In this document: positions 14,976 through 50,477 of the stretch, one piece after another
Numbering within the stretch: position 1 is the first letter of the stretch
Layout: each line of letters opens with the position of its first letter
Source of the DNA: a virus
Lineage: Duplodnaviria; Heunggongvirae; Uroviricota; Caudoviricetes
Virus record (IMG/VR): IMGVR_UViG_2695420874_000004
Length of the DNA: 50,477 nt
Reading direction: 5' to 3' (one strand)
Program-made: the position numbers and the translations under genes
The notes under the pieces: generated by a model
Databases searched by the model: none
What the model was told of the DNA's origin: nothing
What the model saw: only the letters and a program-made list of their open reading frames with translations

Positions 14976-15004
14976 AAAGAGAAACAATTTCTAAGGTATT
15001 TAAG

Positions 15005-15871: not shown

Positions 15872-15897
15872 ACTAAATTTTATAAATGTGGTTTTAT

Positions 15898-17667: not shown

Positions 17668-18180
17668 TCAGTTTGCTCCCTGTAAGCACCAGGCCATCTC
17701 CCGCGCACGGCGGTTATCCAGCCCCTGATTAAACACACCTTTCACATACACCCAGCGCGGCAACTGTCGGCACGCATCCGCCCAGCGCCGCTGATTGAGC
17801 AATTTCACCAGCGTGGAGCTGCAGGCATTGCCTGTCCCCACGTTGAAGGCAAATGACACCACCGCGTCATACACTTTCTGCGGTGGCTGTTGCTTCACAC
17901 ACCTTTCCAGTGACCGCTCCACACGCAGCACGTTGGAGATAAGCCCTTCTGCTGCCTGTCGTTCCGTAATGGTTTTGCCGGGAATGACGCCCGACGTATT
18001 ACCAATGCCGTCAGTCCATACACCCGCGCTGCACTGATACGGCTGCAGACGACAGCCTTCGTAATCGGCAATCAGTTTCAGTCCCTCCACGGAGGTGTGA
18101 AGCTGCTGAAAACCCGGCAGCGTGGCAGCAATAGCCAGCACGACCCCGACAAGGCAGCGTTTAACGATTGATGGATTCAT
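17668..18180 (-). CDS. K: Endolysin (gpK-like lysozyme) with N-terminal hydrophobic SAR-like segment
   Basis: 170 aa; N-terminal CLVGVVLAIAATLPG hydrophobic stretch followed by a lysozyme-like domain with EG...D...T catalytic pattern. Confidence 0.85.
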   Translation of the reverse strand: MNPSIVKRCLVGVVLAIAATLPGFQQLHTSVEGLKLIADYEGCRLQPYQCSAGVWTDGIGNTSGVIPGKTITERQAAEGLISNVLRVERSLERCVKQQPPQKVYDAVVSFAFNVGTGNACSSTLVKLLNQRRWADACRQLPRWVYVKGVFNQGLDNRRAREMAWCLQGAN

Positions 18181-24752: not shown

Positions 24753-25442
24753 TCATATGAGACGACCGTCTGGACTTCTGTTACCTAAATGTAATTCACA
24801 GAGTATCCACCTAATCACATCAGGTCGAATTAACCCAGCTACAAAAACCGAATTCCAATTATTTTTACCTTTATGTTTTTCATCCAACAGCAACAACTCG
24901 CGAGTCAACAACTCATATACATCGCTATAAGTAGAAAGACTCTTATTCAGTCCTCTAATAACAAGCTCAGGATATAAGTAAAACGACTCCCATTGTTCAG
25001 ACAAATACCCCTTAATATTATTCTTGATAACAACATTATCAAGATGATACTTAACATTGTTATATTCTGGTGACATTGGGTCAATTATGATTTTTACATC
25101 AATTGTAGGTGTTCGCCCTAATTTAGAAAAATTAGCACATATTAATCTTTGTTTTAATATATTATCAAAATATGGATGCAGCATCCGATGGCCTGCAGAA
25201 TTAGCTATAGTAGTACTTTTGAAAGTATTACATTTGCAAGCAGGAACCAAATTCTTAGTGAATAAAGAAAATTCTGGATAGTTTTCCTTGGGTAAAACAT
25301 GATCCAAAGTCCCGCTATGCATTGAACCACACATTGGACATAGAGAGTTAGAATTAGCTGCTCTTATATCATCAATTATAGATAAACACTTTGCGGGATT
25401 GTTATAATAATATCTCAAAGCTTCAGCAATATTGTTACTCAA
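24753..25442 (-). CDS. HNH endonuclease-like protein (candidate Septu PtuB-like effector)
   Basis: CPMCGSMHSGTLDHVLPKENYPEF...NLVPACKCN has the C-x2-C / DH / N / C-x-C-N arrangement of HNH nucleases; AT-rich; no ATG at the 5' end (probable TTG start). Confidence 0.7.
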   Translation of the reverse strand: MSNNIAEALRYYYNNPAKCLSIIDDIRAANSNSLCPMCGSMHSGTLDHVLPKENYPEFSLFTKNLVPACKCNTFKSTTIANSAGHRMLHPYFDNILKQRLICANFSKLGRTPTIDVKIIIDPMSPEYNNVKYHLDNVVIKNNIKGYLSEQWESFYLYPELVIRGLNKSLSTYSDVYELLTRELLLLDEKHKGKNNWNSVFVAGLIRPDVIRWILCELHLGNRSPDGRLI

Positions 25443-25616
25443 TACGCCACAAGAATTGACATTAAGATACCCTTTATTCTTTATGTACGATCTATATGCA
25501 TTAAGTATAAATGTATCCTGTTCATTCAGAACAGAATGATGTTTTAATCTCTTATTTGCAGATAGTTTTTAAATGCAGAATAATCTTTAAAAACAGGTCT
25601 TTTTAATTTATTCATT

Positions 25617-27266
25617 TCAATTGCCCATTTCATTTCTCAACGCAGTTAATACATTAAGTGATAAGTCCTCGCTATATTTAGATTCAACATCATCCCAAGA
25701 CATATTCTTTGCAATTATATTATTTTTTACTTTATTTAAAATTTGAGTTGGTTCACTCTCACCGAAAACAAAATATGAGATATTTCCTATATTCGCCCCA
25801 AAAGTACTCAATCTCGGTTTTTCGCTAACAATTACCCCATCATCTCGTCTTCTGAGTATTGTCACTTGCTCCTTAAAAACCTCCCGAACAAGATAAACCG
25901 AATGCGTTGCTATGATAGCTGAAGAGCCTGTCTTTTCTAATAAATTATCAAGCAATGCCATAAATTTATTAATAAATGAAGGATGGAGATGTGTTTCTGG
26001 CTCATCTATTAATAGAAGAGTCCCATTCTCAATATACAAACAGACTTGTACACAAAACTTAATAAACGATATTTCCCCACTACTCAAAGGATAACATTTA
26101 TTTTCAATAAGCCTCAAAGGCTCGCCAGAGAGAATAATTTCAGAATATAATGATAGTCTGGATTCTTCGCCTCGAGAATTAAGCTCATTTAATTTAACAA
26201 ATGGTGAATTTTCACCGTTACATTTGATTACTAAATCGTTGTTACTATTTAGAACACTCAGTGCATCAACAAATATATTCCACCTTTGATTATAGCCGAT
26301 AGCGTCGTTACTCCTCGCTAGTTGCACTATTAAATCATTCAAGTTTAATTTGGATTTTGATTCACGATTTAAAGTCAATCTTTTGTACCATATCAATGAT
26401 TTTATTCTTTTATCGGTTGGAAATGAACACTTACTTTCATTTGTTGGAGAAAAAGCAATGAGCCTACTAATTTGAATTCGTTCTTCAATGCTCACACCGT
26501 TAGAATCAACTACAGCCACCAAATTATCCTTTCCTTTAATCGCAGCCAATGCGATTTCTCTAAGCGTTTGGCTTTTTCCTACACCATTCTCGCCTATAAT
26601 TATGGAAATTCTTTTTGGTAAATCATGCTCGTGATCAAAATTAAAAACATAAGATACATCTTCTTCATTAACTTTATTCGAATAGCTAATCTTGATGTGC
26701 TGTGATAAATTACCCAACTCCTCATATTGAATACCGGAAAGAACTGTTCCTGCATTTTTGAAAGTAAAATACGACTCAGACTCTCTAATGAAAGATTTAT
26801 TAAAGATATCAGAAGAGATTGCTTTTTTCCTCAAATTCTCTGCACTAGCGTCACTTTTCTTAGAAACAACATCATTAATGAAATTTAATATATATTTGGA
26901 TTCATTCACCCCAAAAAATCTTACTAGTCTTCGATAATTATTCATATCCTGAAGCATGACAAAATAATCATTAAACCCCTCATCCTTTAAATTAGATTCT
27001 TCCTTTTTCTTCACTCGCCTTATCAGTTCTGCTTTTCCATTTCGTTCCTCCTCTGAATTCAAAAAACCAATATAACCATTCAGTGAAATTATATCCTTAC
27101 ACTCTTTTTTATTAAAAATAGATATTTCGACTCTACTCAAATATCCAAAATCATTCCAATCGCTTCTTGATGGGACTATTTTTATATAATTACCAGAATC
27201 AGATATCTGTTGATTATTTGTAATTAAAAAATATAAACTATAATTTTTATTTTTCTTGACTAACAT
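25617..27266 (-). CDS. ABC/AAA15-type ATPase (candidate Septu PtuA-like) with about 200-aa N-terminal extension
   Basis: Walker A IIIGENGVGKSQTL, ABC-signature-like LSSGE, Walker B/D-loop LLLIDEPETHLHP; AT-rich. Confidence 0.8.
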   Translation of the reverse strand: MLVKKNKNYSLYFLITNNQQISDSGNYIKIVPSRSDWNDFGYLSRVEISIFNKKECKDIISLNGYIGFLNSEEERNGKAELIRRVKKKEESNLKDEGFNDYFVMLQDMNNYRRLVRFFGVNESKYILNFINDVVSKKSDASAENLRKKAISSDIFNKSFIRESESYFTFKNAGTVLSGIQYEELGNLSQHIKISYSNKVNEEDVSYVFNFDHEHDLPKRISIIIGENGVGKSQTLREIALAAIKGKDNLVAVVDSNGVSIEERIQISRLIAFSPTNESKCSFPTDKRIKSLIWYKRLTLNRESKSKLNLNDLIVQLARSNDAIGYNQRWNIFVDALSVLNSNNDLVIKCNGENSPFVKLNELNSRGEESRLSLYSEIILSGEPLRLIENKCYPLSSGEISFIKFCVQVCLYIENGTLLLIDEPETHLHPSFINKFMALLDNLLEKTGSSAIIATHSVYLVREVFKEQVTILRRRDDGVIVSEKPRLSTFGANIGNISYFVFGESEPTQILNKVKNNIIAKNMSWDDVESKYSEDLSLNVLTALRNEMGN

Positions 27267-34242: not shown

Positions 34243-35262
34243 ATGACCATAAGAAAACAGCCGAACGGAAAATGGTTGTGTGAGTGCTATCCCAATGGAC
34301 GCAATGGTAAGCGCGTGCGTAAGCAATTTGCTACCAAAGGCGAAGCTATTGCATTTGAAAGCTTCACAATGGAAGAAGTGAACAAAAAACCATGGCTGGG
34401 GGAAAAGGAAGATCGGCGACATTTATCAGAATTAATTGAGCTGTGGTATTCCCTGTATGGTCAAACACTCACAGACCCCAAGCGCCTCATGGCGAAACTT
34501 AGTATTATCTGTAATGGTCTAGGCGATCCCATCGCTTCAGAACTGACAGCCGGTGACTTTACGAAATACCGCGAAGCACGGTTAAAAGGTGAAGTACGAA
34601 ATGAAGATGGCACGCTTATGTCGCCCGTTAAGCCCCGCACGGTAAACCTTGAACAGCGCAATCTATCATCTGTTTTTGGTACACTGAAAAAGCTGGGCCA
34701 CTGGTCAGCCCCCAACCCGCTTGCCGGGCTGCCAACATTTAAAATTGCTGAGAGTGAATTGGCGTTCCTGACCCCGGAAGAAATTAAACGTCTGCTGGAT
34801 GCCTGTGCTGATTCTCAAAGCTCTAGTCTGCTGACGGTTGCAAAAATATGTCTGGCCACCGGCGCGAGATGGAGTGAAGCCGAAAACCTGCAGGGCCATC
34901 AATTATCAAAATACCGGATCACTTACACCAAAACTAAAGGCAAGAAAAACCGAACCGTACCGATATCTCAGGAGCTATATGAAGAACTCCCCAAAAACAG
35001 AGGGAAACTATTCACGCCCTGCAGAAAAGCTTTTGAGCGCGCAGTAAAACGAGCCGGTATAGACCTGCCTGAAGGCCAGTGCACACACGTGTTGCGCCAT
35101 ACATTCGCCAGTCACTTCATGATGAATGGCGGAAACATATTGGTACTACGCGATATTCTTGGTCACTCTGATATAAAAATGACGATGGTTTATGCTCATT
35201 TTTCGCCAGATCATTTAGAAGATGCTGTAACAAAAAATCCACTGGCTATGTTGGGATACTGA
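34243..35262 (+). CDS. int: Tyrosine integrase (P2/186 Int family)
   Basis: 339 aa with C-terminal HVLRHTFASHFMMNGG...LGHSDIKMTMVYAHF catalytic box (R...H-x-x-R...Y). Confidence 0.92.
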   Translation: MTIRKQPNGKWLCECYPNGRNGKRVRKQFATKGEAIAFESFTMEEVNKKPWLGEKEDRRHLSELIELWYSLYGQTLTDPKRLMAKLSIICNGLGDPIASELTAGDFTKYREARLKGEVRNEDGTLMSPVKPRTVNLEQRNLSSVFGTLKKLGHWSAPNPLAGLPTFKIAESELAFLTPEEIKRLLDACADSQSSSLLTVAKICLATGARWSEAENLQGHQLSKYRITYTKTKGKKNRTVPISQELYEELPKNRGKLFTPCRKAFERAVKRAGIDLPEGQCTHVLRHTFASHFMMNGGNILVLRDILGHSDIKMTMVYAHFSPDHLEDAVTKNPLAMLGY

Positions 35263-35264
35263 TA

Positions 35265-36296
35265 ATGGAAAAAAGCATTAGCACATTTATGTACCTATCC
35301 GTTTTATTAGGTTGTATATTCTTATTTATAAAATATCGACTTTATGTTCTCGATCATAGAAGCTTGTTCCAACAACCCTTGTTCTGGGCTGCAATAGGCC
35401 TACCTTTATTCACCAGCCTTTACTTTGGTTCTTTTGTCTGGATAGATAAAATACACTCTTTTAGTCTTACAAGTCACGGTTATGAGAGATTTTTAGATAT
35501 CTCGAAATTACCATTACTCATCCTTGCATCTGCAGTACCTTTAGTTTCAATAGTAAACAACCTACACAGAACCAAACAAACAGAAAAACAGATCTCAGAG
35601 GCAGAAAGGAAAAACAGGGTAGATTTATATTACAACCACATGAAATTTCATCTTGATTTATATAAAAAAATCGAAGGGAAAAGAATAGGCAGCTACTACC
35701 CGGTTCAGGAAGCTCAAGCTGAAGCAATCTACCAACATTTTATAAAACATCCACAAGAACTATATAGAAAAGCATACCCACAATCTACGCCTGATGATTC
35801 TCAACAATTAGATATTAATGAGCAATTTGTTATTGATTTACACAAATGTTGGGTAGAAATCAACGCAAGACTCAAGCAATTATCCGAGAGTGAAAATCAA
35901 ATACATCCTACAGAGGAACTTTGCACAACAAAGATGAGAATATTTGTAGGAGTTATGATTATTTATGAAAAAACTTGTAAACTGTTGTGTTTAGGTGGAT
36001 TTCATTATAAAAAGTCATTTGTAATAAATGATAGTTATAATAAATACCAAGTTTATTCACCATTTTATGATTTTGGCACTCTGTACGAATCACTGCAATC
36101 CTTAGAAGAGATAACCTACGCCTTCTTGGATACTTGCAGAAATGAAGTGGTAAACTTGTACTTCCCTATAGAAGATAAAATTTTGATATATGGTGAAGGG
36201 ATTCTAGAGAATTGGTTCAAGTATTCTCAGTTCTTGATCACTATAGCTTATCAACCCGCCAAGATGTCTCGCTTACCCCAGCTGAGACGCGATTGA
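35265..36296 (+). CDS. Hypothetical membrane-anchored cargo protein between int and attR
   Basis: 343-aa AT-rich ORF starting 2 bp after the int stop; two N-terminal hydrophobic helices (LSVLLGCIFLFI, LFWAAIGLPLFTSLYFGSFVW) and a large soluble C-terminal part. Confidence 0.65.
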   Translation: MEKSISTFMYLSVLLGCIFLFIKYRLYVLDHRSLFQQPLFWAAIGLPLFTSLYFGSFVWIDKIHSFSLTSHGYERFLDISKLPLLILASAVPLVSIVNNLHRTKQTEKQISEAERKNRVDLYYNHMKFHLDLYKKIEGKRIGSYYPVQEAQAEAIYQHFIKHPQELYRKAYPQSTPDDSQQLDINEQFVIDLHKCWVEINARLKQLSESENQIHPTEELCTTKMRIFVGVMIIYEKTCKLLCLGGFHYKKSFVINDSYNKYQVYSPFYDFGTLYESLQSLEEITYAFLDTCRNEVVNLYFPIEDKILIYGEGILENWFKYSQFLITIAYQPAKMSRLPQLRRD

Positions 36297-36412
36297 TGAT
36301 GGCGACATTTTGGCGGCAGAGCTTTAAAAACAGATAAAACTGTCAAACACCACATAACACTAACGTATTGTTTTTAAAAATAAATCATTATTTTTTCTGT
36401 AGTAAAAATGGT

Positions 36413-36457
36413 ATGTAGGAATTTCGGACGCGGGTTCAACTCCCGCCAGCTCCACCA
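36413..36457. repeat. attR of the P2-like prophage / attL of the downstream island: partial ssrA 3' end
   Basis: Exact 45-bp copy of 1016..1060. Confidence 0.75.
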
Positions 36458-36582
36458 ATTTTTGATATATTGAAGTTCAGTGAAGTCTATCAAGCCCGCA
36501 TGGAACCAGCCTTGCGGGCTTTTTTACGTCTATAGTAGTCTACCGAGAATTGCTAGAATCTACTCGTTATGGCACCCTTTTT

Positions 36583-36627
36583 GGGACCCAACACAAAGGG
36601 TCCAAAACATGAGGGTCCCAAACATGG
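36583..36627. repeat. Three tandem 15-bp imperfect repeats overlapping the island integrase start codon
   Basis: GGGACCCAACACAAA / GGGTCCAAAACATGA / GGGTCCCAAACATGG in direct succession; the third contains the int ATG. Confidence 0.4.
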
Positions 36628-37853
36628 CAAAAATCGCTAAGAAGCTCACTGACACTGAAATCAAAAGCACCAAACCTGCCGAGAAAGAGGTTAACCTTTT
36701 TGACGGCGATGGTTTGCTCCTGCGAATCGCCCCCTTAGCGAAGGGAGGAAAGAAAAATTGGTATTTCAGATATGCAGTGCCTGTGACCAAAAAGCGAACT
36801 AAGGTGAGCTTAGGAACCTATCCTCACCTTACACTTGCGAAGGCACGAGCTTTACGTGATGAGTACTTGTCGTTGCTTGCAAATGGTATAGACCCACAAG
36901 TTCATAACACCCACAAAGCCAATGCCCTTAAGGATGCAACGGAACATACATTTCAAGCAGTAGCCAAGAAGTGGCTTGATGAGAAAGTCAAAACGTCAGG
37001 CATCTCCCAGGATCATGCTAACGACATCTGGCGAAGCCTAGAGAGAAATATCTTTCCAACGTTGGGTGATACCCCCATTAAGGAGATTCGCCCTAAAATG
37101 CTTAAACAGCATTTAGACCCCATAGAAAAACGAGGTGTCCTTGAAACACTTCGCCGCGTCATATCCCGCCTGAATGAAATTTTCCGCTATGCAGCAACAG
37201 AAGAACTCATAGAATTCAATCCGGCTGACAACCTGGGGCAACGGTTCAGCAAGCCAAAAAAACAGAATATGCCAGCATTACCCCCTTCCGAACTCCCCCG
37301 CTTCCTGGTTGCTCTAAACAATGCTTCTATCCGTTTAGAAACAAGGCTACTGATTGAGTGGCAACTTCTCACATGGGTTCGCCCTGGTGAAGCTGTTCGC
37401 ACAAGATGGTCAGATATTGATATAGAAACCAGCATGTGGAACATCCCGGCGGAGTTTATGAAAATGAAGAAGCCTCACAAAGTTCCACTGAGCAAAGAAT
37501 CTTTGCGAGTCTTGGATTCAATGAAAGCCATCAGCGGGCATAGAGAGTGGGTTTTTCCCAGTATCAAAGCTCCACTCAATCACATGCATGAACAAACAGC
37601 TAATGCGGCTATAATCCGTATGGGCTTCGGAGGTGAGCTTGTAGCTCATGGTATGCGATCAATCGCTAGAACGGCGGCTGAGGAGTGTGGCAAGTTTAGA
37701 ACTGATGTCTTAGAAGCCGCCCTTGCCCACTCGAAAAAAGATGAAATAATTGCAGCCTACAATCGTGCAGAGTATCTCACAGAACGTGTGGTTCTCATGC
37801 AATGGTGGAGTGACTATGTTTCGTCTCAAAAATACAAAGTTATTGCCGCATAA
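36624..37853 (+). CDS. P4-type tyrosine integrase (CP4-57 IntA-like)
   Basis: N-terminal LTDTEIKSTKP...GDGLLLRIAP...WYFRY arm-binding region and blocks DIWRSLERNIFP, QKKNMPAL, AHGMRSIARTA, EAALAH, AYNRAEYL, MQWWSDYV shared with IntA as I recall it. Confidence 0.9.
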   Translation: MAKIAKKLTDTEIKSTKPAEKEVNLFDGDGLLLRIAPLAKGGKKNWYFRYAVPVTKKRTKVSLGTYPHLTLAKARALRDEYLSLLANGIDPQVHNTHKANALKDATEHTFQAVAKKWLDEKVKTSGISQDHANDIWRSLERNIFPTLGDTPIKEIRPKMLKQHLDPIEKRGVLETLRRVISRLNEIFRYAATEELIEFNPADNLGQRFSKPKKQNMPALPPSELPRFLVALNNASIRLETRLLIEWQLLTWVRPGEAVRTRWSDIDIETSMWNIPAEFMKMKKPHKVPLSKESLRVLDSMKAISGHREWVFPSIKAPLNHMHEQTANAAIIRMGFGGELVAHGMRSIARTAAEECGKFRTDVLEAALAHSKKDEIIAAYNRAEYLTERVVLMQWWSDYVSSQKYKVIAA

Positions 37854-38135
37854 CTCTTCCATGATGGGTTAACTATCTTGATTTATTTGAAGAATTAATG
37901 ATCACACCATTAACCTATGTGGACTAAGCATAGCCATTTACAAATGGGTACCTTGAGGCCACATAACGAAAGCTGTCGGTCATATCAGCTAAATAATTCA
38001 CATCTCTTCTCGATTATCATACACCTCGAAGAACTACCAAATTCGCTCTAATCAATGATAAAACAGTTGAATTCGGTTAAAATTTGATCAATTTTATCCT
38101 CTACATTGTATTGAATCATCCATGAGGTTTTGTGC

Positions 38136-39692
38136 ATGGCTAGCGGAAATGAAAAAAATCATAGAGTTAGGGTCGCACAGTACTTGAGGATGTCTACCGA
38201 CCATCAGCAATATTCTTTACATAATCAGTCTGAATATATCAAAGATTATGCTGAAAAGAACAATATGGAAATCGCTTATACCTACGATGATGCAGGTAAG
38301 AGCGGAGTCAGTATCGTAGGCAGGCATTCTTTGCAGCAGTTACTTAGCGATGTAGAACAAAAGAAAATAGATATACAGGCTGTATTATTTTATGATGTGA
38401 GCCGTTTTGGTCGTTTTCAAAATAGTGATGAAGCTGCATATTATTCCTTTCTATTTGAAAGAAATGGTGTAGATCTTATATATTGTTCCGAACCTATACC
38501 CACTAAAGATTTCCCTTTAGAGTCCTCTGTTATACTGAATATAAAAAGATCAAGTGCTGCATATCACAGCAGGAATCTATCTGAAAAGGTATTTATAGGG
38601 CAAGTAAATTTAATAAAGCTTGGTTATCATCAAGGCGGTATGGCTGGTTATGGGCTGAGACGTCTTTTAGTAGACGAAAATGGCATAGCTAAAGAAATAT
38701 TGAATTTCCGCAAAAGAAAGAGTATTCAAACAGATAGGGTAATATTAATTCCGGGACCAAAAAATGAAATAAAAATTGTAAATAGAATCTATGATCTCTT
38801 TATAGATAGTAACGTCCCAGAATTCATTATTGCTGAGAGATTAAATGAACAGAGCATACCTGCAGAAAATGGAACATCATGGACTCGTGCAAAAATACAT
38901 CAAATTTTGACAAATGAAAAATATATTGGAAACAACATATATAACAAAACCTCATCTAAACTAAAAAGTAAGCTTGTAAAAAACCCCAAACATGAATGGA
39001 TTAGATGTGACAAGGCATATAAACCAATTATTTCAAAGAAAAAATATAATAAAGCTCAAGAAATAATTCAGCTCCGATCCATTCATTTGACTAATGAAGA
39101 TCTATTAGAAAAGCTAAAAGAAAAATTAGAATCTAATGGAAAACTATCAGGCTTTATCATTGATGAAGATGATACAGGCCCTTCATCTTCTGTTTATAGA
39201 ACCCGATTTGGTGGTCTTTTAAGAGCATATACTTTGATTGGTTATAAGCCAGAACATGATTACAGCTATCTCCAAATAAATGAAGCACTAAGATCATTTT
39301 ACTCAGAGATAATTGAGGATTTTAAGGGCGAAATATTAAAAAGTAACTGTCATATAGACGAGTATAAATATTACCCAATGCTTTACATCAATGATGAGTT
39401 TTTAATTTCCGTCCTTGTTACTAAATGCATACATATGAAATCAGGTAAACTTAGATGGAAAGTCCGGTTTGATAACTCACAGAAAGCAGACATAACAATT
39501 GTTATACGAATGAATTCACAAAATATTTCACCTCTTGATTTTTATATCATACCAAAGATTGAAAACGAATATAGTAAAATGTGTATGATGGAAACAAACA
39601 ACATTCGGTTAGATCTCTATAGATTTGATAATCTTGATAAATTTCTACAAATTATTACTCGCATGAAAGTGAGGGAACTATATGCTGCCTGA
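38136..39692 (+). CDS. Large serine recombinase
   Basis: N-terminal resolvase-type catalytic region VAQYLRMSTDHQ...YDDAGKSG...R followed by a long recombinase extension; total about 518 aa. Confidence 0.8.
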   Translation: MASGNEKNHRVRVAQYLRMSTDHQQYSLHNQSEYIKDYAEKNNMEIAYTYDDAGKSGVSIVGRHSLQQLLSDVEQKKIDIQAVLFYDVSRFGRFQNSDEAAYYSFLFERNGVDLIYCSEPIPTKDFPLESSVILNIKRSSAAYHSRNLSEKVFIGQVNLIKLGYHQGGMAGYGLRRLLVDENGIAKEILNFRKRKSIQTDRVILIPGPKNEIKIVNRIYDLFIDSNVPEFIIAERLNEQSIPAENGTSWTRAKIHQILTNEKYIGNNIYNKTSSKLKSKLVKNPKHEWIRCDKAYKPIISKKKYNKAQEIIQLRSIHLTNEDLLEKLKEKLESNGKLSGFIIDEDDTGPSSSVYRTRFGGLLRAYTLIGYKPEHDYSYLQINEALRSFYSEIIEDFKGEILKSNCHIDEYKYYPMLYINDEFLISVLVTKCIHMKSGKLRWKVRFDNSQKADITIVIRMNSQNISPLDFYIIPKIENEYSKMCMMETNNIRLDLYRFDNLDKFLQIITRMKVRELYAA

Positions 39693-40578
39693 AAAAAATG
39701 AATTCCCAATAATTCAAATTGAGATTGCAAAAATAAAATTTCTTAACCCACGAACAAGAAATAAGGTAGTGCATGAAGAAATAAAGGAAAGCATAAAAAA
39801 AAGAGGATTAAGCAAGCCTATAAGCGTAAGAGCTATTGATGAAGACGATTTCAAATATGCTTTAATTTGTGGTCAAGGGAGAATAGAGGCTCTTGTTGCA
39901 TTAGGTGAAACTATTATTCCAGCAATTATAAGAGATGTATCAGAAGAAGATGCTTACGTTATGAGTTTAGTTGAAAACATTGCAAGGAGAAGACCACGTT
40001 CTAATGAGTTATTACAGGTGATTAAAGACATGAAAATCAGAGGACTTTCAGACTCCGAAATAAGTGAGATTACTGGATATTCATCGAACTGGGTGAGCAG
40101 TATTAATATGCTTCTTGATAAGGGAGAGCATAAACTTCTCTCAGCAGTCGAACGGGGTAATTTGCCTCTGTATCTCGCAGTGCAATTTGCAAGATGTGAA
40201 ACTGAGGAAGCACAAGATATTCTTACCGAAGCATATGATAAAAAATTAATAAAAAGTCGGGACATTATAAAGATAAAATACATTCTAAATCAAAGAACAG
40301 TTGGGAATAAAGGTGCAAAAGCAGCCGGATTTTATTATCACAAACCATCAAAAAGGATGACTGCAGAGGAGTTGATTGAGCTTTATGAAAATAGTATCGC
40401 TGAACATAAATCTGTTTATAACAACTCGAAATTTATAAAAACCAATCTACTAATAATAAATGAGATTTTTAACATCATAATGATGAATAAAAGCTTTCAA
40501 AATATACTTGAACAAGAGAATCTTTCAGAACTACCATCTCAGATATTAAACCCAGTAAACAAAGAGGTATCAAAATGA
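39682..40578 (+). CDS. ParB-like (ParB/Srx-fold) protein 1
   Basis: PISVR...YALICGQGRIEA...MSLVENIARR plus HTH-like GLSDSEISEITGYSSNWVSS match the ParB N-terminal domain pattern; overlaps the recombinase stop. Confidence 0.7.
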   Translation: MLPEKNEFPIIQIEIAKIKFLNPRTRNKVVHEEIKESIKKRGLSKPISVRAIDEDDFKYALICGQGRIEALVALGETIIPAIIRDVSEEDAYVMSLVENIARRRPRSNELLQVIKDMKIRGLSDSEISEITGYSSNWVSSINMLLDKGEHKLLSAVERGNLPLYLAVQFARCETEEAQDILTEAYDKKLIKSRDIIKIKYILNQRTVGNKGAKAAGFYYHKPSKRMTAEELIELYENSIAEHKSVYNNSKFIKTNLLIINEIFNIIMMNKSFQNILEQENLSELPSQILNPVNKEVSK

Positions 40579-41471
40579 TTCAGATACGTTTTGGCAAAAA
40601 TTTTATTTACCTGGAAACTAATAAGTTAATTCCATCTAAGGAATTATTAGAAAACGTAAAGCGAAGCCATAAATATCATCAAATAGTTACCTCTATCGAA
40701 AGCTTGGGTATTATTGAACCAATAATAGTATTCTATGACAAAGATAAAGATGTCACTAAGATACTTGATGGCCATTTAAGGGTTGAGGCTTTAAAAGACT
40801 TAGATATAGAAAAAGCTCCATGTATACTTTCGAGCATAGATGATGCTTTCACTCCTAACAAACAAGTGAATCATATAAATGTAGTTGAAGAACATAGAAT
40901 GATAATTAAGTCTCTGGCAAAAGTATTAATTGAAAAACTTAGTGCTGCTTTGGGCATATCTGTTGATGCCATAAAAGATAAAGCTAATGTGATGAACGGC
41001 ATAGATCCAAGTGTAATTGCGAAACTTTCTGATAAACCTATACCTAAGGCTACATTTGACGTTTTGAGGAAAATGAAGCCAATTCGTCAAATTGAAGCAG
41101 TCGGTACAATGATTAATTTTGATAATTATAGTAAAAAATTTGCAATGAGCATCTTGGATGCAACACCGTCATCGATGATAGTAAATAAAGGGAAAAACAC
41201 TCCCTATAAAAAGGACATAAAAAAAACCATACTTCGTCTGGAACAAGAAATGGCAACAACTTCGGAAGAAACGAAAAAACTTCAAACCGAGTATGGTTCA
41301 GATATGTTGAAATTCGTTATAATCCAGTCATATATTAATAAATTACTTGGCAACTCTAAAGTTCTTCATTGGTTCTTAGAAAACGAGGTTGATTATCTTA
41401 ATGAGTTAAAAAGAATTTCTAGAATAAATTCTTTGGATGATAAGACTCTTACTGAAAACAGCCAGTCATAG
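40575..41471 (+). CDS. ParB-like (ParB/Srx-fold) protein 2
   Basis: IIEPIIVF...ILDGHLRVEALKDL resembles the ParB N-terminal motif; overlaps the upstream stop (ATGA). Confidence 0.6.
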   Translation: MIQIRFGKNFIYLETNKLIPSKELLENVKRSHKYHQIVTSIESLGIIEPIIVFYDKDKDVTKILDGHLRVEALKDLDIEKAPCILSSIDDAFTPNKQVNHINVVEEHRMIIKSLAKVLIEKLSAALGISVDAIKDKANVMNGIDPSVIAKLSDKPIPKATFDVLRKMKPIRQIEAVGTMINFDNYSKKFAMSILDATPSSMIVNKGKNTPYKKDIKKTILRLEQEMATTSEETKKLQTEYGSDMLKFVIIQSYINKLLGNSKVLHWFLENEVDYLNELKRISRINSLDDKTLTENSQS

Positions 41472-42523
41472 TCATGGTTTTATATAGCCTAAATAAACCA
41501 AGAAGTATACTTACACAACGACCTTCACGCCGAAGAAGCTGTCAGATACGCCAGCAACCAAAGCATTGCGTTTAAGAGTCAGTCATTGATACGAAGGGAT
41601 AACTGCGTATCAGCAGCCGGACATTGAGTCGAATAAAGGCTGGTAGAGAGGGACAGTTCTGTGTCACCGGGAGATTAGTCAGAAACATCAGCGGCAGAAC
41701 AGATGAACCAGCAATTGGTAGTGTACAGAAAACTCTCCAGTATATAATTATTCAACTTAACACTAAAAAAAATCACATAGTTAATATCATAATTTTTCTT
41801 TGGTCTACTTATGCGAGAGATATTGTGGCTTCAACCTGGTATTAGGAGTCGTTTCAGATAAAAGATGTTCTTCGATTCGACTGGACTTGGTAATAGCAAT
41901 AAGTAATCGTGAATATTGAAGGACGAAAGGCTACTTCAAAACAAAGTAACCTTTCCAATATTCCCATATATGGGACAAGTGGCACATTAACTGCACATAG
42001 TGCAGGATACATATGACATAAAACTTTTTATTTATGGCATACATTAAGAATAACTTTTATTTTACGAATGTCAATAGGCTCTTGCTTAATACTTTTAAAA
42101 TAATTAATTGATTTTTTATTATAGCTTCGCTTGTACAAGCGAAGATCCTATTGTTCTTGAATGAATAATGCCAATTATAAAAGAAGCAAGGGCTAACCCT
42201 ACGAAGCCGCTGCGCTTGTTTCTTTGGGTTCCCCTTGCTTTTCTTCCCTTCGGTTAGAAAAGAAAATCCAGCCCAGTTTATCAACTATCTACAGTATTCC
42301 CACTAAAGAGTAACCGCCACTTTATACTCCGTTTGTGAGCTGAGGCTACTGTAGCATTTTTGGGTTTAAATTTTCTATCATTACCAGTTGTTGTGTCGGG
42401 ATAAAAATATTTTCTCGCATCCAACCATAAAGATATCAGATTTGCTATCATCATCACTTCACATAATGAAACTTTTTAAGTAGGCCTAAAATACAAGGCC
42501 TACTTAATAGCCGGAGATAGTTA

Positions 42524-43429
42524 TTATTTAGATGCTAAAATAGTATTTTTATTGAATTTTTCATCAGCATCTGTAAGCTTTTTCATTATTAAAGCAGGGG
42601 CTATATCCTGAAGCTCCGTAGATTTTATGAAAAAATAATTACAAAGGTAAATTATATTATTAAGATTAATTGGTATATCAATATTATAATCTAACATTAA
42701 CGATAACAAACGATCTCTGTCAATTCTATAAAACTTTTTACCAAGCTCTTTCTCATTAATTATTGAAATTATCTTTTCATCAAGCTTATCGTCCATTCTC
42801 AATCTTAATTTATTTCTTAGCATAGCGGACCATGCGCTTGACTTATAATTTCTATATGCTAAATCCTCAAATAACTTCATTATTCCCCAATCAGATGTTT
42901 CCAAAGAGGCGTAAATTCCATTCAGCGCGCGACTAAGGTCATTATGCTCAACCCAATCCTCTTTGCACTTATAGCGTAGATCATGCTCAACTTCATGCCA
43001 TCCTTCAGATAAAATAGTTCTAAATTGGACTTCAAAAGTAGTATCAATATAAGAATATTTCTTTAATAAGACACTATCATTTGATAATACTTCTGGTAAC
43101 TTAAAGACGTAATTGCATCGAGTTGCCGCAAAGAGATTAGCCGTGGTTTCGTCTACGGTTTTAGATTCAATTTCGAATAATTTCTCCAGTGTTTTTTGAG
43201 CAATAAATAAATCATCAGGAAAATATAATATTATCCTAACCCCAAATAAGTCTTGAATTTTTTTACCATCCTCTGAGTATTTATTAGGCTCTTTTTCATA
43301 TTTCTTAATTATTGAGCTTTCTGATTTTGTCCTCGAAAAAAAACGATAAAGTAATCCAATACGATTAAGTTCATCTTCTATATCTTTTTGCAAACTTTGA
43401 ATAATTCGCAATTCATTCCCGTTATACAT
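42524..43429 (-). CDS. RelA/SpoT-like nucleotidyltransferase (small alarmone synthetase / toxSAS-like)
   Basis: Three synthetase-fold motifs in order: SRTKSESSIIKK (GRxKS-type), DLFGVRIILYF (D-x-x-G-x-R), FEVQFRTILSEGWHEVEHDLRYK (E-x-Q-x-R-T...H...Y-K); about 140-aa C-terminal extension. Confidence 0.7.
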   Translation of the reverse strand: MYNGNELRIIQSLQKDIEDELNRIGLLYRFFSRTKSESSIIKKYEKEPNKYSEDGKKIQDLFGVRIILYFPDDLFIAQKTLEKLFEIESKTVDETTANLFAATRCNYVFKLPEVLSNDSVLLKKYSYIDTTFEVQFRTILSEGWHEVEHDLRYKCKEDWVEHNDLSRALNGIYASLETSDWGIMKLFEDLAYRNYKSSAWSAMLRNKLRLRMDDKLDEKIISIINEKELGKKFYRIDRDRLLSLMLDYNIDIPINLNNIIYLCNYFFIKSTELQDIAPALIMKKLTDADEKFNKNTILASK

Positions 43430-45534
43430 CAGAAATTCCTCCCAAGAATTGCTTTAATCTCTGATATTCTTGCCATGTTAAGTTCAAGGAACGAACGCTT
43501 GTCTGGCGTAAGTAAAAGACCGTCTTTCCTCAATTTATCTAAAGAATGGAGTATTTCACTTAACTGAAATTGATTGTTGTTAGAACATAAGCCTTTTATA
43601 GGCCGATGCTTATGATAGCTAACACTCCCTCTGGGACAGAACTTCTCTAAGATGTAAATATCACAATCTGTAATATCGTGATCATTTTCACTGTTTATCT
43701 CGACAGATTTTTTATTAATAGCATCATTGTCACATTCACATCCCAAAAAATAAATATCTTCCCTACCACTTAATTCGTTAAAACTACAATCTATAAAAGA
43801 ACAGTTCACGAATGTAACGTTTTTATAATTACCACAGGTAAATATGCTGCTAAAAAACGAACAATCAACAAAGATAGTATCATGTATTATATTTATATCG
43901 CCTAAAGAAAGTTTTGATATAGACAATTGCTCAACACTATCATTTTTTAAATCTAATGGAACTTTTCCTATAAGCAAATGACTATAAAGGATTTTATCAT
44001 TACCTGACATAAAATATAAAGCAAACTCTAAGCTATGCCAAAGTAATTCTTTTTCATCATCGATCCTCGGCATATAAGATTGCACTGCTGGTTCTATAAA
44101 ACGTTTATCACCAATCCATTCATTTGACTTATCATTAATAATATTTTCAGAAACAAAATTACCAAGAACAAATTCATTAACAAATCCAATACCTTGGTTT
44201 TCTGAGCCTGACCGATCTAATAGAGCATGCGATGCTAATTTATTAACTAATTCGTCAGTAGTTGGTCTTTCATCTACAGTATAAAGCTTTCTTGTAGCCT
44301 CCAAGAGTTGTTGATTCTTTTCAGTTATGACTAACGATATATACTCTCTAGACTCAGATGTGTAGTTACCCTCGACCATGTCGTCAGCTATTATTTTTAG
44401 TATAGTATATTGATCTTCAATAGACATTAATAAATCTTGTCTTTTTCTTTCTCGCTCAAGCATTGAATCAAAATACTTCCTCACTATAGTTGTTGGGTCG
44501 CTTATAACTTTATTAAAGTCGGTGTCGTCGATGCATCTTAGAAATGATAGCAGTACAGGGTTTGATAATTTGTTAAGAGGAAATCCTGTCGATGAAATTT
44601 CATCTAAACGTTGACCTGGAAGCCAGTCTTCAATTTGTGGTTCATGAATTCTTATTCTTATCACATCAAAATCTTCTTGATGTGATGCTATCCACTGATG
44701 GAATTCATCTCCGTCAAATATAGCTGTTCTTCGAGTTGTCAAAACCACTTTTGCACTATCAGTTAGAAGCTCACTTATTGTTTCCAGCATTGGCTCTGTT
44801 TTTTCATAATTATTTTCAATTCCGTTTGTACTTTCATGCAATAGTTCATCAAACCCGTCAAGTATAACTGGTACATTTCCTGCTCTTATTTCATTCCTTA
44901 CTAAGGCTGAGCTTAACAAAGGAAAACTTCTATCAATTTCATCTAATAGTACATACCTGAATATTTTTGCTTGCCTATTCCTTGATAGTTCTGAAAATAA
45001 TGGTATTTTCCCTATATTGTTAACTATAATCTCCCTCAATAATTCATACGCCGTGCAAGTCTTTCCAAAACCGGCTGCAGCCTCAATCAAAAACAGAATT
45101 GGACGCCTATGTTGTATTCTCTCTAATATTTCCGTAACAACACTAGCTTCGCCAATAACACCATTTAAGTAATATTTTGAATTTATGTAGGAATAAGTTG
45201 CAGTAGGTGAGTGAATTTTTACAATTGAATCTGTGAAAGTATTATAATCTTTAATCAACCTTTCTTTAGTTGAATCGACGCTAAAGAAGCCATTAAATAA
45301 TTCCTTATGTGCTTCTTCATAAGACTGATATTTTTTAATTTGACATGCATAACCTAACTGCCTATATTCTTCAAAGGTTTGATTTACATTAACCTCATTA
45401 TTTAGTGGAAGTATGTCCGCGTTATGGTAGTGCCCTGTTTTAATAGAATATACAGCAATACTTTCGTTACCTGTATTTTCTTCAGTAAAACCAAACCTTT
45501 TATATATCTCTGTAAGTTTGCTTTTTCGTAACAT
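43429..45534 (-). CDS. NACHT-type STAND NTPase with repeat-rich C-terminal region
   Basis: Walker A LIEAAAGFGKTCTA and NACHT-type Walker B VPVILDGFDELLH; C-terminal Cys/Phe-rich repeat-like region; start set to the ATG at 45532..45534, which has a strong AGGAGGT Shine-Dalgarno 7 nt upstream. Confidence 0.8.
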   Translation of the reverse strand: MLRKSKLTEIYKRFGFTEENTGNESIAVYSIKTGHYHNADILPLNNEVNVNQTFEEYRQLGYACQIKKYQSYEEAHKELFNGFFSVDSTKERLIKDYNTFTDSIVKIHSPTATYSYINSKYYLNGVIGEASVVTEILERIQHRRPILFLIEAAAGFGKTCTAYELLREIIVNNIGKIPLFSELSRNRQAKIFRYVLLDEIDRSFPLLSSALVRNEIRAGNVPVILDGFDELLHESTNGIENNYEKTEPMLETISELLTDSAKVVLTTRRTAIFDGDEFHQWIASHQEDFDVIRIRIHEPQIEDWLPGQRLDEISSTGFPLNKLSNPVLLSFLRCIDDTDFNKVISDPTTIVRKYFDSMLERERKRQDLLMSIEDQYTILKIIADDMVEGNYTSESREYISLVITEKNQQLLEATRKLYTVDERPTTDELVNKLASHALLDRSGSENQGIGFVNEFVLGNFVSENIINDKSNEWIGDKRFIEPAVQSYMPRIDDEKELLWHSLEFALYFMSGNDKILYSHLLIGKVPLDLKNDSVEQLSISKLSLGDINIIHDTIFVDCSFFSSIFTCGNYKNVTFVNCSFIDCSFNELSGREDIYFLGCECDNDAINKKSVEINSENDHDITDCDIYILEKFCPRGSVSYHKHRPIKGLCSNNNQFQLSEILHSLDKLRKDGLLLTPDKRSFLELNMARISEIKAILGRNF

Positions 45535-46373
45535 TAAACTCACCTCCTGATATTTTTCGCAATGATGCTATAGTCGCTGTATGAACTTTTAATATAATAT
45601 TACAAAAACCATCTACATAGCTACCGCCTAAGCAATAATAGCTATGTAGAGATTATCTGTAAGAGAACAGTTCAACGGTTACGTGCACGTTATGACATCG
45701 TTCTAACTTCATGGGGTGCTCAGTAACAGAACTTTTAAGCCATTCTTGCTCGCTGAACATGCAGTCATACCTATCACAAGCAGTACAACCATTACTTAGC
45801 AGACCTCTGCTTCTTGTTCCAAAAGGAACGTAAACCAGATGTTAGAGTTAACAAAACTGAAAGCCACTGCCCCCCAAATCTCCAAGTCAAACATTAGAGA
45901 CTTTAAGTGAGCTCAGCCCAGATTATGCATTCTAATCAATTTCCAAATAATCAATCGGGCTAAGCCGTGGTGGTCATCGCGCCAATCCCCATAATGAAGG
46001 ATACATCTTGGCTGTATCATCTTCCTTACAGCTGCGTTTCAACATGTGCTGAACAACACTCAAGTTAATGTAAATGAGCCAGTGAATACAACATCTGTTT
46101 CAAATCACTTTGAAGTTTTCTTCACTTAATGTGTACGCCAAAATTATCCGGATAAACATAGAGTAACGGTCGACCGGGATTACAATCAACCAGTTTCATC
46201 TCTAGTAAGCGATATTCTTATGGCGGCAGCGGAATGTTCTGACAACCCCACTGAGGCGGTGCTACAGAATCTTATCGAAGCCAAACATCAGCTACGTTTC
46301 CCTAGATGTTAAAATCAGTAGTCGCAGGGCCAATGCTAATGATCCACACATTGACCGTGAAGGGGCCTTTCAG

Positions 46374-46646
46374 GTGGGTACGACTGCATTCCAAGTGACC
46401 ACCGCACCTATGGAGAAATTGATTTCACACTGTATCAAAATCAAACGCGCAGGCTACAGGCCGGTCATCCTAACTCTTGAAAGCAAGGTCATTGCAGCAC
46501 GCCAGCTGGCTGATAACGTTGGTATGTCTGAACTGATAGCCATCCAGGCAGCTGAAACTTTCATTGGTAACAATATTGAAGAGATTGCTATTTATGACGG
46601 CGATAAAATCCGTGAGAGTCTCGCAAGATTGATACATCTCTTATGA
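46374..46646 (+). CDS. Hypothetical protein
   Basis: 90-aa ORF of moderate GC in an otherwise non-coding stretch; no recognisable motif. Confidence 0.35.
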   Translation: MGTTAFQVTTAPMEKLISHCIKIKRAGYRPVILTLESKVIAARQLADNVGMSELIAIQAAETFIGNNIEEIAIYDGDKIRESLARLIHLL

Positions 46647-47227
46647 TTGATGAGCCTCTTGGATCGTTAACTTACTGACCGACTCCTGAAATACATAGAG
46701 CTCAGTAAGCTTAACGAGTCGCTTTTTTCCACCATACCTAAGCCCCAAAACTAAAGCACTACGGCTTGATTGGGCTGGCGTAAGTCTGCACACCGAGCCT
46801 TTTGCACTATAAATTTCTCAGAATATATAACCAATATGTCAGTAAAGGTTTAAAGTGAATGATTCGTTTTGGCAGGATACTTACGATTATCACAACACTA
46901 TCACATATTGTGTCTCACACACAAAGTTGAAAATCAAAACAGAAGTAAAAGATATAATATTCCCCTGCTAAAATACGATTCACTTCAAACATTTAATATT
47001 AATGGGATATATTTCCCCCTAAGCAATGGGGAAAAACGCCCATCAATCAACCATGAAATAAAAATAGCACTTTTTGCAAACTATGAATTTATTTATATAA
47101 AACATTACATTAAATTAGTTTATTCAAAAGAAAACGCTTGCTTATTTTTTATTATTAAAAATAAATTTGATTTTTATTTATTTGATAATATACATTCATT
47201 TCATCAAAATAATAAAGGAGAATAAAA

Positions 47228-49245: not shown

Positions 49246-50477
49246 AAGGCATGCAGAAAATAAAAAGGGGTAAACAATTCACAGGTGTGGTTATTTATAG
49301 CCTGAAGTCAGGTTCTCACCACAAAATCACGCCTTATGTCATCGGTGGCAACATGACGGGTAGCACTGCTGCTGAGCTTATAAGTGAATTTGAAGGCACC
49401 CGACTGCTGCGTCCCGATGTCGCCAAACCTGTCTGGCATAATTCACTTCGCCTGCCAAAGGGTGAGAAACTGTCAAACAGACAGTGGGCAGCATTCGCTG
49501 ACGATTATATGGCCCGAATGGGCTTCACTGACACCCATCTTCGCTGCTATATCATGCACGATGATCCGGATGGGCAGCATATTCATATCATTGCAAGTCG
49601 TATTAACATGGTCGGTGGAAAACTGTACCTGGGGAAAAATGAAAATCTTATCGGCACACGGATTATCAGTGAGCTGGAGAGAGTACACGGCCTCACCGAA
49701 ACTACGGGTGTAACCGGCAGTAGCCGCCAGGATAAAAGGAAGCCTTCCCGTAATGAACTGATGATGGCAGAACGCACAGCAGCTCCCTGCCCTAAGTCAC
49801 TGTTGCAGGCCCTGCTCGACAATGCATTAACACACCATCCCGATTTACTAACCTTTGTTCGCTTACTGGAACAGGAAGGAGTGACCTGCAAACCCAATAT
49901 CGCCACTACGGGTAAAATGAGTGGATTTTCATTTCAATACCAGGGTATTGCCTTTAAAGCATCTCAGTTGGGTAAAAAATATGGCTGGTCTTCCCTGCAA
50001 GCACTGATTGATTTTACGCCTGAGCATCTGAGTTTACTGAAAGAAGCCCAGAGGCCAATAGAACCTACAACCGCGCCAGTGCCAGTGCCAGTGCCAGTGC
50101 CAGTGCCAGTGCCAGTGCCATCATGCGAGTCTGAAGAGCAGGCTGCAAACCGGGAAACGATTCTGGAGAAAATCCATCAGCTTGAAGAAAAAATTCGTCT
50201 GGAAAGACAACAGGAGACAGTGGGTATCATCCAGCTCAGGAGCAATCTGCACAATACAGCTCGTCAGATACCCCGCCAGCGTCGTCTGTATTCATGGCTT
50301 GTATTGCTCGTCCATATTGTGGCACTTCTCAGGCGCAGAGGCATGTCTCTGTTACATGCCACTGCACATCCTTTCCACCAAATCCTCCACCTACATATTC
50401 TGACACCCTGTCATCCCATGACAACAAATACCAATAAAGAACAATCATTTAAAAACAACAACCATCCTGCACCATAA
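49242..50477 (+). CDS. Relaxase (MobA/VirD2-family mobilisation nuclease)
   Basis: HDDPDGQHIHIIASRIN has the H-x-D...H-x-H relaxase motif; central (PV)n linker; stop codon is the last three bases of the window. Confidence 0.8.
   Translation: MKGMQKIKRGKQFTGVVIYSLKSGSHHKITPYVIGGNMTGSTAAELISEFEGTRLLRPDVAKPVWHNSLRLPKGEKLSNRQWAAFADDYMARMGFTDTHLRCYIMHDDPDGQHIHIIASRINMVGGKLYLGKNENLIGTRIISELERVHGLTETTGVTGSSRQDKRKPSRNELMMAERTAAPCPKSLLQALLDNALTHHPDLLTFVRLLEQEGVTCKPNIATTGKMSGFSFQYQGIAFKASQLGKKYGWSSLQALIDFTPEHLSLLKEAQRPIEPTTAPVPVPVPVPVPVPVPSCESEEQAANRETILEKIHQLEEKIRLERQQETVGIIQLRSNLHNTARQIPRQRRLYSWLVLLVHIVALLRRRGMSLLHATAHPFHQILHLHILTPCHPMTTNTNKEQSFKNNNHPAP
50076..50120 (+). repeat. Hexanucleotide tandem repeat (CCAGTG)7 inside the relaxase gene
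   Basis: Seven perfect CCAGTG units encoding a Pro-Val linker. Confidence 0.9.

Follow-up and report, generated by a model that had tools for sequence, protein, structure and literature searches.

A conserved trio of a large serine recombinase and two ParB-like proteins in an ssrA island of Escherichia coli: a possible integration module

The stretch of DNA analysed here (the window; 50,477 nt, IMG/VR record IMGVR_UViG_2695420874_000004) is part of the Escherichia coli chromosome around ssrA, and a 100% identical region is found in many E. coli genomes. At positions 38136-41471 it carries three genes that encode a large serine recombinase (LSR) and two ParB-like proteins, which we call ParB-A and ParB-B. 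This trio is an ancient, always-linked unit; its order recurs in essentially every related locus examined, far above chance, and several relatives lie at the ends of mobile elements. Tentatively, we read the trio as an LSR integration or recombination module with ParB-type cofactors, which in E. coli is nested in, or was captured by, a larger island.

The three genes and the proteins they encode

The trio consists of the following genes (aa, amino acids; ORF, open reading frame):

38136-39692 (+), LSR, 518 aa counted from the ATG; TTG 38130 opens the ORF
39682-40578 (+), ParB-A, 298 aa; 11-nt overlap with the LSR gene
40575-41471 (+), ParB-B, 298 aa; ATGA overlap with ParB-A

An earlier note on this stretch, made from the letters alone, had described three overlapping AT-rich genes downstream of the island integrase. 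ORFs, RefSeq annotation and GC content agree with this description: the identical three coding sequences are annotated in identical E. coli genomes, under the names 'recombinase family protein' and 'ParB/RepB/Spo0J family partition protein', and the GC content of the trio is 0.31-0.34 compared with 0.50-0.60 in most of the remaining window. Across the related loci the gene junctions are mostly overlapping or abutting.

ParB-B homologues were gathered and aligned (alignment A1), which gave 80 loci from contigs of one genome per species. Order and strand of LSR, ParB-A and ParB-B were constant in essentially all of those with long-enough contigs. Among IMG/VR contigs, both ParB genes followed 46 of 49 divergent LSR homologues (41-48% identity); two of the exceptions were cut by contig ends and one was degenerate. 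The expectation that the three genes would form a syntenic unit elsewhere was borne out in both samples. The trio was found in gamma-, alpha- and betaproteobacteria, in Geobacter sulfurreducens, in Rhodovulum and in a metagenome-assembled genome (MAG) of the Thermoanaerobaculia. It is also present on plasmid pAtC58 of Agrobacterium fabrum C58 and on pSym and Sinorhizobium megaplasmids, and in the latter the locus is interrupted by an IS30 element. The ParB-B family comprises 446 clusters at 50% identity (E<=1e-30). Within Enterobacteriaceae, dN/dS values of 0.07-0.12 for the LSR, 0.05-0.07 for ParB-A and 0.08 for ParB-B revealed strong purifying selection on all three genes.

The cassette is carried by 657 of 5,426 complete E. 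coli genomes, almost always as a single copy, and is chromosomal in all 658 places. At least 80% of it is present in 619 E. coli genomes, with all three genes annotated in the matches listed. BL21 and other B-derived laboratory strains carry the trio; in BL21, the integrase gene (int) and the trio alone remain after a deletion associated with IS1, and some strains show occasional insertion sequences (IS) and frameshifts. A search of PLSDB for a plasmid or phage origin at the DNA level matched an IS3 end only, and at the protein level a phage collection gave a single unannotated match. In Palleronia pontilimi the LSR gene (L052:7492-9063) contains an internal stop codon, with both ParB genes and the RNA element described below intact; this is decay of the recombinase alone. 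We found no description of the trio in the literature searched, where most subscription-journal papers fell outside, and an earlier description is possible.

The LSR matched the Pfam families Resolvase (PF00239, 7.6e-22) and Recombinase (PF07508, 5.3e-22, residues 210-312), and the Recombinase domain was detected in 16 of 16 diverse members. These sequences are conserved along their full length, including the C-terminal domain. Serine (S) 20 in RMSTDHQ, the YDVSRxGRF motif and residues D87, S89, R90 and R93 are invariant, and the sole invariant cysteine is C431. The YDVSRxGRF motif can be likened to the YDVSRF-type motif of phiC31 Int. A PHROG integrase family was matched with 7e-69, and the sequence matches among PDB entries include TP901-1 Int and SPbeta YokA. 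The closest likeness in NCBIfam was to CcrB and CcrC, at 64.5 bits against an equivalog cut-off of 900 bits. A search for the zinc ribbon (Zn_ribbon_recom, PF13408) found no match in the 16 members at E<=1; half of them showed weak HNH_repeat-type matches and a few weak HTH_62 matches. In classical serine integrases the zinc-ribbon/coiled-coil domain serves att-site discrimination and control by recombination directionality factors (RDFs).

The ParB motifs that had been pointed out in both downstream proteins are conserved family-wide, as CGQGRIEA in the ParB-A alignment (A3) and DGHLRxEA in the ParB-B alignment (A1). ParB-A matched ParB_N (PF02195; 1.6e-13, 50.9 bits against a cut-off of 26.3 bits) and RepB (2.7e-7), and ParB-B matched RepB (4.3e-23), with ParB_N just under the same cut-off at 24.2 bits. 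ParB-A is composed of a ParB N-terminal domain, a helix-turn-helix (HTH) of the RepB type and a C-terminal helical region. Its PDB matches are Spo0J, ParB, Noc and KorB; the ParB-B profile matched Noc (4e-10) across the N-domain and the HTH, and the HTH region of the pair aligns to Spo0J and Noc. An hhalign comparison of A3 with A1 identified the two proteins as paralogues (probability 95%, 245 aligned columns). By these profile and PDB matches, both proteins belong to the ParB/Spo0J/Noc/KorB DNA-clamp branch.

In A3, the motifs NPRxRN, CGQGR(I/L)E and ENxxRR (ENIARR in the window) are invariant. CGQGR stands in place of GERR, so that the first arginine of GERR is lost. In A1, DGHLRxEA is kept and the ENxxR box is lost. 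The pocket motifs are mostly kept in ParB-A and partly lost in ParB-B; the pattern suggests one nucleotide-competent subunit (ParB-A) and one degenerate subunit (ParB-B). Searches of PADLOC-DB 2.0 (5,027 models) revealed no match for LSR or ParB-A; ParB-B weakly matched (24 bits) a methyltransferase model, in the ParB-like N-terminus of that model. The ParB-nuclease-based system considered in the earlier note is unsupported, because both proteins match the clamp branch with HTH and no PADLOC model matched beyond this weak ParB-B hit. A stand-alone ParB-like nuclease was likewise rejected on sequence grounds: both proteins carry the HTH/RepB region, and among the PDB matches Spo0J, Noc and KorB rank far above 6ryk, an entry of the nuclease type.

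Position of the trio in the ssrA island and at the ends of related elements

The elements at ssrA and the non-coding parts of the cassette are:

698-1060, tmRNA gene (ssrA)
34243-35262, terminal integrase of the P2-like prophage that follows ssrA
36281-36457, partial tmRNA (ssrA 3' end) repeat from the Rfam search, dividing the P2-like prophage from the P4-integrase island
36480-37853, ORF of the P4-type tyrosine integrase of the second element, annotated from 36624, with Arm-DNA-bind_3, Phage_int_M and Phage_integrase (Pfam)
37867-38135 (+), upstream non-coding leader of the cassette, with the left edge at ~37867
38055-38083 (+), candidate sigma-70 promoter from a consensus scan (ATGATA, 17-nt spacer, TAAAAT), the -10 overlapping the palindrome
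38080-38095, 16-bp near-palindrome AAATTTGATCAATTTT centred on GATC, a candidate operator or parS-like site
41472-41522 (+), 3' tail of 51 nt that closes the conserved cassette on the right

The ssrA fragment was the only known RNA that the E-value search of Rfam detected at 36-43 kb. As this repeat lies between the prophage and the island, two elements are stacked in tandem at ssrA. The second is bounded by its own tyrosine integrase, as the earlier note had stated; this integrase is of the P4 type and lies behind the ssrA 3' repeat. Because a relaxase gene is encoded further along, the second element is an integrative mobilizable element (IME). The trio starts 283 bp downstream of the tyrosine integrase.

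Homology to sister ssrA islands stops ~13 nt past the integrase stop codon, and the integrase genes match only to ~37820-37866. The integrase-proximal slot holds ThiF/JAB genes in the sister island of E41-1 and AAA and PLD genes in that of H10407. On the right side, two ~94% identical lineages part exactly at 41522, one leading into an IS3 remnant and the other into an integrase C-terminal fragment. Several pairs of ~91-97% identical cassettes in differing surroundings defined the edges of the conserved unit, which comprises the three genes with ~80-345 bp upstream and 0 to ~100 bp downstream (~50-100 bp in several pairs). In the window, the cassette has sharp boundaries and a length of 3.65 kb; it is nested in the ssrA IME or was captured by it.

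The cargo downstream of the trio varies. Another lineage, found both in an argW island and in Cronobacter, has an integrase fragment, the trio and TIGR04141/Hxs genes. Islands at tRNA-Arg, tRNA-Leu and tRNA-Asn contain further members, for the most part with a P4-type integrase nearby. The Morganella trio comes immediately after tRNA-Arg, without an intervening integrase, and no tRNA-Arg repeat was found within 13 kb downstream of the trio.

The palindrome AAATTTGATCAATTTT is the sole match with at most one mismatch across the 50-kb window. Of 24 Enterobacterales loci, 11 have it at -55 to -57 relative to the LSR ATG (-56 in the window); the loci that carry it span several divergent clades, with LSRs ~46-58% identical to the window LSR. 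Each cassette has a single copy, and the palindrome is a candidate operator or parS-like site of the ParB pair rather than a recombination pair. The overlapping candidate promoter matches the consensus at 9 of 12 positions and is not significant alone (24 sites found, 21.5 expected).

In Geobacter, Rhodovulum and Samsonia the trio adjoins core-like genes with no tyrosine integrase in view. The Geobacter locus reads from an AraC gene and a small Cro/C1-like ORF through the trio to AbiEi and a type I restriction-modification (R-M) system; that of Rhodovulum starts with an IclR gene and a small ORF before the trio, and in Samsonia AcrB and TetR genes precede the trio, followed by HipA and type I R-M. 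In one metagenomic element, the trio ends a type IV secretion system cluster resembling that of an integrative and conjugative element (ICE), where it follows HTH_17/HTH_3 genes and stands beside core-like genes.

Pairwise homology among Rhodobacteraceae revealed a module that consists of a pseudo-tRNA-Ser 3' arm, a small divergent ORF, LSR, ParB-A, ParB-B and a structured RNA with a terminal hairpin. In one Rhodobacteraceae class, a divergent ParE toxin gene comes between the arm and the small divergent ORF; it is accompanied by a small upstream ORF, which we read as its antitoxin. The diverged pseudo-tRNA-Ser 3' arm (TGGCGGAGGGA...CAACGTTCTCC) was found at the outer module edge in at least 12 alphaproteobacterial-type loci:

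Pseudo-tRNA-Ser arm, L079:6082-6103 and 18091-18180; also in L049, L050, L052, L053, L054, L059, L060, L076, L065, L084 and L007

The presence of the same diverged arm in at least 12 loci of different genera indicates that it is borne by the element and did not decay separately in each host. We consider it a candidate att arm of LSR-borne islands.

Locus L079, from a Paracoccaceae MAG, contains a 12-kb island between tRNA-Ser(tga) and a 22-nt direct repeat (91%). This repeat, which includes the 13-bp exact repeat GCAAGTGGCGGAG, reaches significance (E=0.003), as no other copy in the locus does. The island encodes ParE, the small upstream ORF, the trio, HsdR and YgjP. No tyrosine integrase was detected in it by Pfam searches of the larger ORFs or by tblastn, and the LSR is the only recombinase found in this repeat-flanked tRNA-Ser island. 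The earlier note would have taken it as a refutation if the recombinase proved to be the only integrase of an element with boundaries of its own; this relative comes close to such a case, and the E. coli copy does not. In five alphaproteobacterial loci, tRNA-Ser genes are convergent with the trio and lie downstream of it, and in L080 a separate tyrosine-integrase island is inserted between the trio module and the tRNA.

In the IMG/VR provirus contigs, 28 of the 49 LSRs are located at most 4 kb from a contig end with the LSR outermost, and seven are placed in the opposite sense. Phage-tail or gene transfer agent (GTA)-like genes follow the trio in three provirus cases. This bias could mean that the trio is a prophage integration module, or could merely reflect shared tRNA hotspots.

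A small ORF divergent from the LSR was observed in alphaproteobacterial, Geobacter and related metagenomic loci:

Small divergent ORFs, L002:6106-6366 (-), L007:5041-5424 (-), L052:6856-7353 (-), L097:6083-6490 (-) and L099:7111-7470 (-)

The Geobacter ORF has a weak Cro/C1-type HTH, and Pfam matched none of the others; there is no counterpart in the E. coli window. Fic/DOC-family genes neighbour the trio in a Salmonella island (L090:6385-7002), on pAtC58 (L097:9965-11146) and on an IMG/VR provirus contig that also carries GTA-like tail genes (L163:1-1224), three contexts that are unrelated to one another.

A structured RNA downstream of ParB-B and other features of the window

A structured element of ~160 nt with about four stem-loops lies on the same strand directly 3' of ParB-B in 44 of the 85 loci searched, which are mostly of the alphaproteobacterial type (alignment A5):

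Structured RNA, L052:10897-11054, L059:9374-9531, L065:6934-7092 and 41 other loci

It starts 1-24 nt past the ParB-B stop codon where measured. In the alignment 97.3% of cells were paired and 17 of 35 pairs showed compensatory changes; none of 500 shuffles reached the observed values, and slid controls collapsed. A search of Rfam 15 gave no match. Neither the E. coli window nor any of the Enterobacterales loci nor the Geobacter locus has the element; it therefore does not belong to the core mechanism and is a separate lead.

Further observations concern the surroundings of the cassette. An IS3-family end remnant (41513-41600) abuts its right edge and matches IS3 ends on plasmids of Klebsiella, Erwinia and Pantoea. 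A 23-nt inverted repeat (91% complementary) joins positions 39920-39942, inside the ParB-A gene, with 46630-46652, 6.7 kb downstream; it is borderline, near chance for an AT-rich region by a rough estimate. An invertible segment or shufflon was considered and rejected, as no convincing long inverted repeats were present.

On the minus strand, a two-gene pair (42524-45543) encodes a 704-aa protein that overlaps by 1 nt with a 301-aa RelA/SpoT-domain protein. The 704-aa protein has an NA-iREase2 N-domain and weak NACHT and pentapeptide-repeat matches. PADLOC returned nothing convincing for this pair, apart from a weak PDC-S33 match of the RelA/SpoT protein. It looks like an NLR-type defence pair, and only ~58 complete E. 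coli genomes carry it.

A 343-aa ORF (35265-36296, +), situated between the P2-like integrase and the ssrA repeat, contains several hydrophobic stretches and had no match in Pfam, NCBIfam or PADLOC. In strain 300709 the corresponding slot is occupied by an anti-phage dCTP deaminase, and the slot therefore looks like a P2-type cargo hotspot. Blocks of low GC content (0.31-0.34) at 15001-16000 and 25001-27000 inside the P2-like prophage, one of which contains a 549-aa ORF (25617-27266, -), are probably prophage cargo genes. A tandem array of the hexamer GCCAGT (50075-50120) lies within the relaxase gene at the end of the window.

Integration module, cargo or maintenance unit

In the mechanism that we propose, the LSR would cut and rejoin DNA for site-specific recombination. 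ParB-A and ParB-B would act together, probably as a heterodimer, on the 16-bp palindrome over the operon promoter, where they would autoregulate the operon, and they may serve as architectural or directionality cofactors of the LSR. The pair would thereby replace the zinc-ribbon/coiled-coil and RDF control that was undetected in the LSR. The module would integrate and excise islands, conjugative elements and possibly prophages from its place at the element end, and in alphaproteobacteria the target would be the 3' end of tRNA-Ser. Of the options in the earlier note, the nested mobile element or second recombination module fits best, given the relatives at element termini; for the E. coli window itself the flanking repeats, empty site and att sites that would go with it were not found.

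Known serine integrases offer several parallels. phiC31 Int/gp3, Bxb1 Int/gp47, SPbeta SprA/SprB and TP901-1 Int likewise combine serine catalytic and Recombinase domains with a location at element ends and accessory genes. In contrast to these classical integrases, the trio LSR has no zinc-ribbon/coiled-coil domain detectable by profile. Known RDFs are small and unrelated to ParB, whereas the trio accessories are a pair of ParB-fold proteins of 300 aa each, which always accompany the LSR and are translationally coupled. Serine-recombinase IMEs that nest within other elements have been described (PMC5704250). In a survey of Paracoccus prophages, one cluster was annotated with serine integrases and its target sites were unidentified (PMC6536676); it is likened to the trio LSR by description only.

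The ssrA islands of Dehalococcoides carry an LSR-based integration module with a ParB-domain protein at the island edge, and a tRNA-like 3' end forms the att repeat (McMurdie et al. 2011, PMC3146451). The module consists of the LSR DsiB, DsiA, a RecF-like protein, a ParBc protein, a Mom-like and a primase-like protein (PMC3146451). Compared by description, it shares an LSR and a ParB-domain protein with the trio; however, it comprises six genes, among them one for a second, small serine recombinase, and in place of a pair of RepB-type ParB paralogues it has only one ParBc protein, of 210 aa. It is placed at the ssrA junction, whereas the E. coli trio lies behind a tyrosine integrase. The SCCmec recombinases CcrA/CcrB and CcrC are likewise LSRs; they carry islands into a conserved gene at its 3' end, and their genes are transcribed together with that of a partner (PMC3146451). 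The trio LSR scored far under their equivalog cut-off, and its partners have a ParB fold instead of being a second recombinase.

With Noc, KorB, VirB and BisD of ICEclc, the trio ParB proteins share the N-domain and HTH, the lack of a ParA and carriage on mobile elements, as for BisD (PMC12409273); the 16-bp palindrome at a promoter is a candidate loading site for them. They differ from the CTP-switch clamps in being two co-evolving paralogues with GQGR/DGHLR instead of GERR and in their fixed linkage to a recombinase, and clamping is a prediction for them. In RK2/RP4, a serine recombinase operon with accessory genes (parCBA) is divergent from the ParD/ParE toxin-antitoxin genes. The ParA of RK2 belongs to the small resolvases, and its ParB is homologous to staphylococcal nuclease and does not have the ParB/Srx fold. 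The likeness to parCBA-parDE is one of layout only and was seen in one Rhodobacteraceae class of the module.

Several observations weigh against the integration module. Both island ends are statistically supported in only one relative (L079), and the 10-bp repeat of L061 is not significant (E=0.46). Around the E. coli cassette, where the earlier note had advised a search for flanking repeats at 38.0-41.6 kb, direct and inverted repeats at 36-43 kb and 35.3-50.5 kb gave chance-level AT-rich matches only, a k-mer comparison of the two cassette ends revealed nothing longer than 8 nt, and no att sites of the window trio were found. When the joined cassette flanks were used as a query, an empty site was found in none of the 5,426 complete E. 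coli genomes, and int and trio always travel together in these genomes. With neither an empty site nor flanking repeats, the E. coli copy gives no direct sign of its own mobility. The slot next to the integrase is shared with other, possibly defence-related, cargo in E41-1 and H10407, and the closeness to prophages may be due to no more than common tRNA/tmRNA hotspots, as in the window. Finally, the absence of a zinc ribbon from the LSR rests on sequence searches, and the link of the ParB proteins to serine recombination, their heterodimer and their CTP binding are sequence-based proposals.

A more far-reaching version of the integration module, which we regard as speculative and rather unlikely in full, takes the ParB proteins as nucleotide-switch clamps. 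These would form a heterodimer of an active and a degenerate member and, as obligate co-evolving subunits, would provide control of site selection or directionality to an integrase that has no zinc ribbon; the alphaproteobacterial-type clade would add the 160-nt RNA.

Alternatively, the trio could be cargo for defence or against other mobile elements, which we judge unlikely. The ParB pair would recognise incoming DNA, such as parS-like sites or plasmid or phage DNA, and the LSR would inactivate it by recombination, or the trio would bar competing elements from the island site. This would suit its location in the integrase-adjacent variable slot of sister ssrA islands, its AT-richness, patchy distribution and sharp cassette boundaries, as well as neighbours that are often defence or toxin genes: the NACHT and RelA/SpoT pair in the window, and elsewhere RloB/AAA, Hxs, type I/III R-M, AbiE, ApeA, DUF499/DUF1156 and Fic. 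However, defence neighbours are common in every island. None of the 5,027 PADLOC models gave a meaningful match, which led us to reject a known anti-phage system, and a large serine recombinase is not known as the effector of any defence system. Neither the bias towards element ends with a fixed outward orientation nor a trio that is the sole recombinase of a bounded island is predicted for a cargo gene.

The trio could also maintain an excised or replicating island or plasmid, with the LSR resolving multimers or tandem copies and the ParB pair acting as the centromere-binding, segregation or silencing part, by analogy with the stability locus parCBA-parDE of RK2; this, too, seems improbable to us. 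The ParB/RepB homology with HTH and a parS-like palindrome, the presence on the megaplasmids pAtC58 and pSym and the divergent ParE toxin gene beside the module in one Rhodobacteraceae class are in line with it. The relaxase-encoding host island of E. coli could replicate after excision, and ParB-based maintenance of IMEs has been discussed (PMC5704250). On the other hand, no ParA, RepA or Soj partner was found in any trio neighbourhood inspected, and the scores in NCBIfam partition models are far under the cut-offs (partition_RepB 37 against 201.5 bits, PRTRC_parB 50 against 278 bits); only the generic domain model parB_part was above its cut-off, and for ParB-A only. For these reasons the partition unit of the earlier note is a weak reading, and a ParABS system or a rhizobial RepB was rejected. 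Moreover, the recombinase belongs with the large integrases/transposases and not with the small resolvases, the palindrome occurs as a single copy with no res-like array, and the E. coli trio is always chromosomal.

That the E. coli trio is a decaying relic, a once-mobile module carried passively with no present function, would fit the want of att sites, empty site or recent movement within E. coli, the occasional IS insertions and frameshifts and the reduction to int and trio in BL21, but it is very improbable given dN/dS values of 0.05-0.12 on all three genes, the near-complete cassettes in 619 genomes and the conserved operator palindrome.

The trio represents a large unnamed family. If it is an integration module, the label 'partition protein' is misleading, and a widespread class of proteobacterial island and prophage integrases has been uncharacterised so far. 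Control of a serine integrase by ParB-type clamps would put the ParB CTP switch to a new use and could offer a regulatable tool for genome engineering. In its more far-reaching form, the reading would imply a new class of integrase controlled by accessory factors, possibly RNA-assisted, that moves islands, ICEs and prophages, and possibly an autonomous mini-element of 3.6-5 kb.

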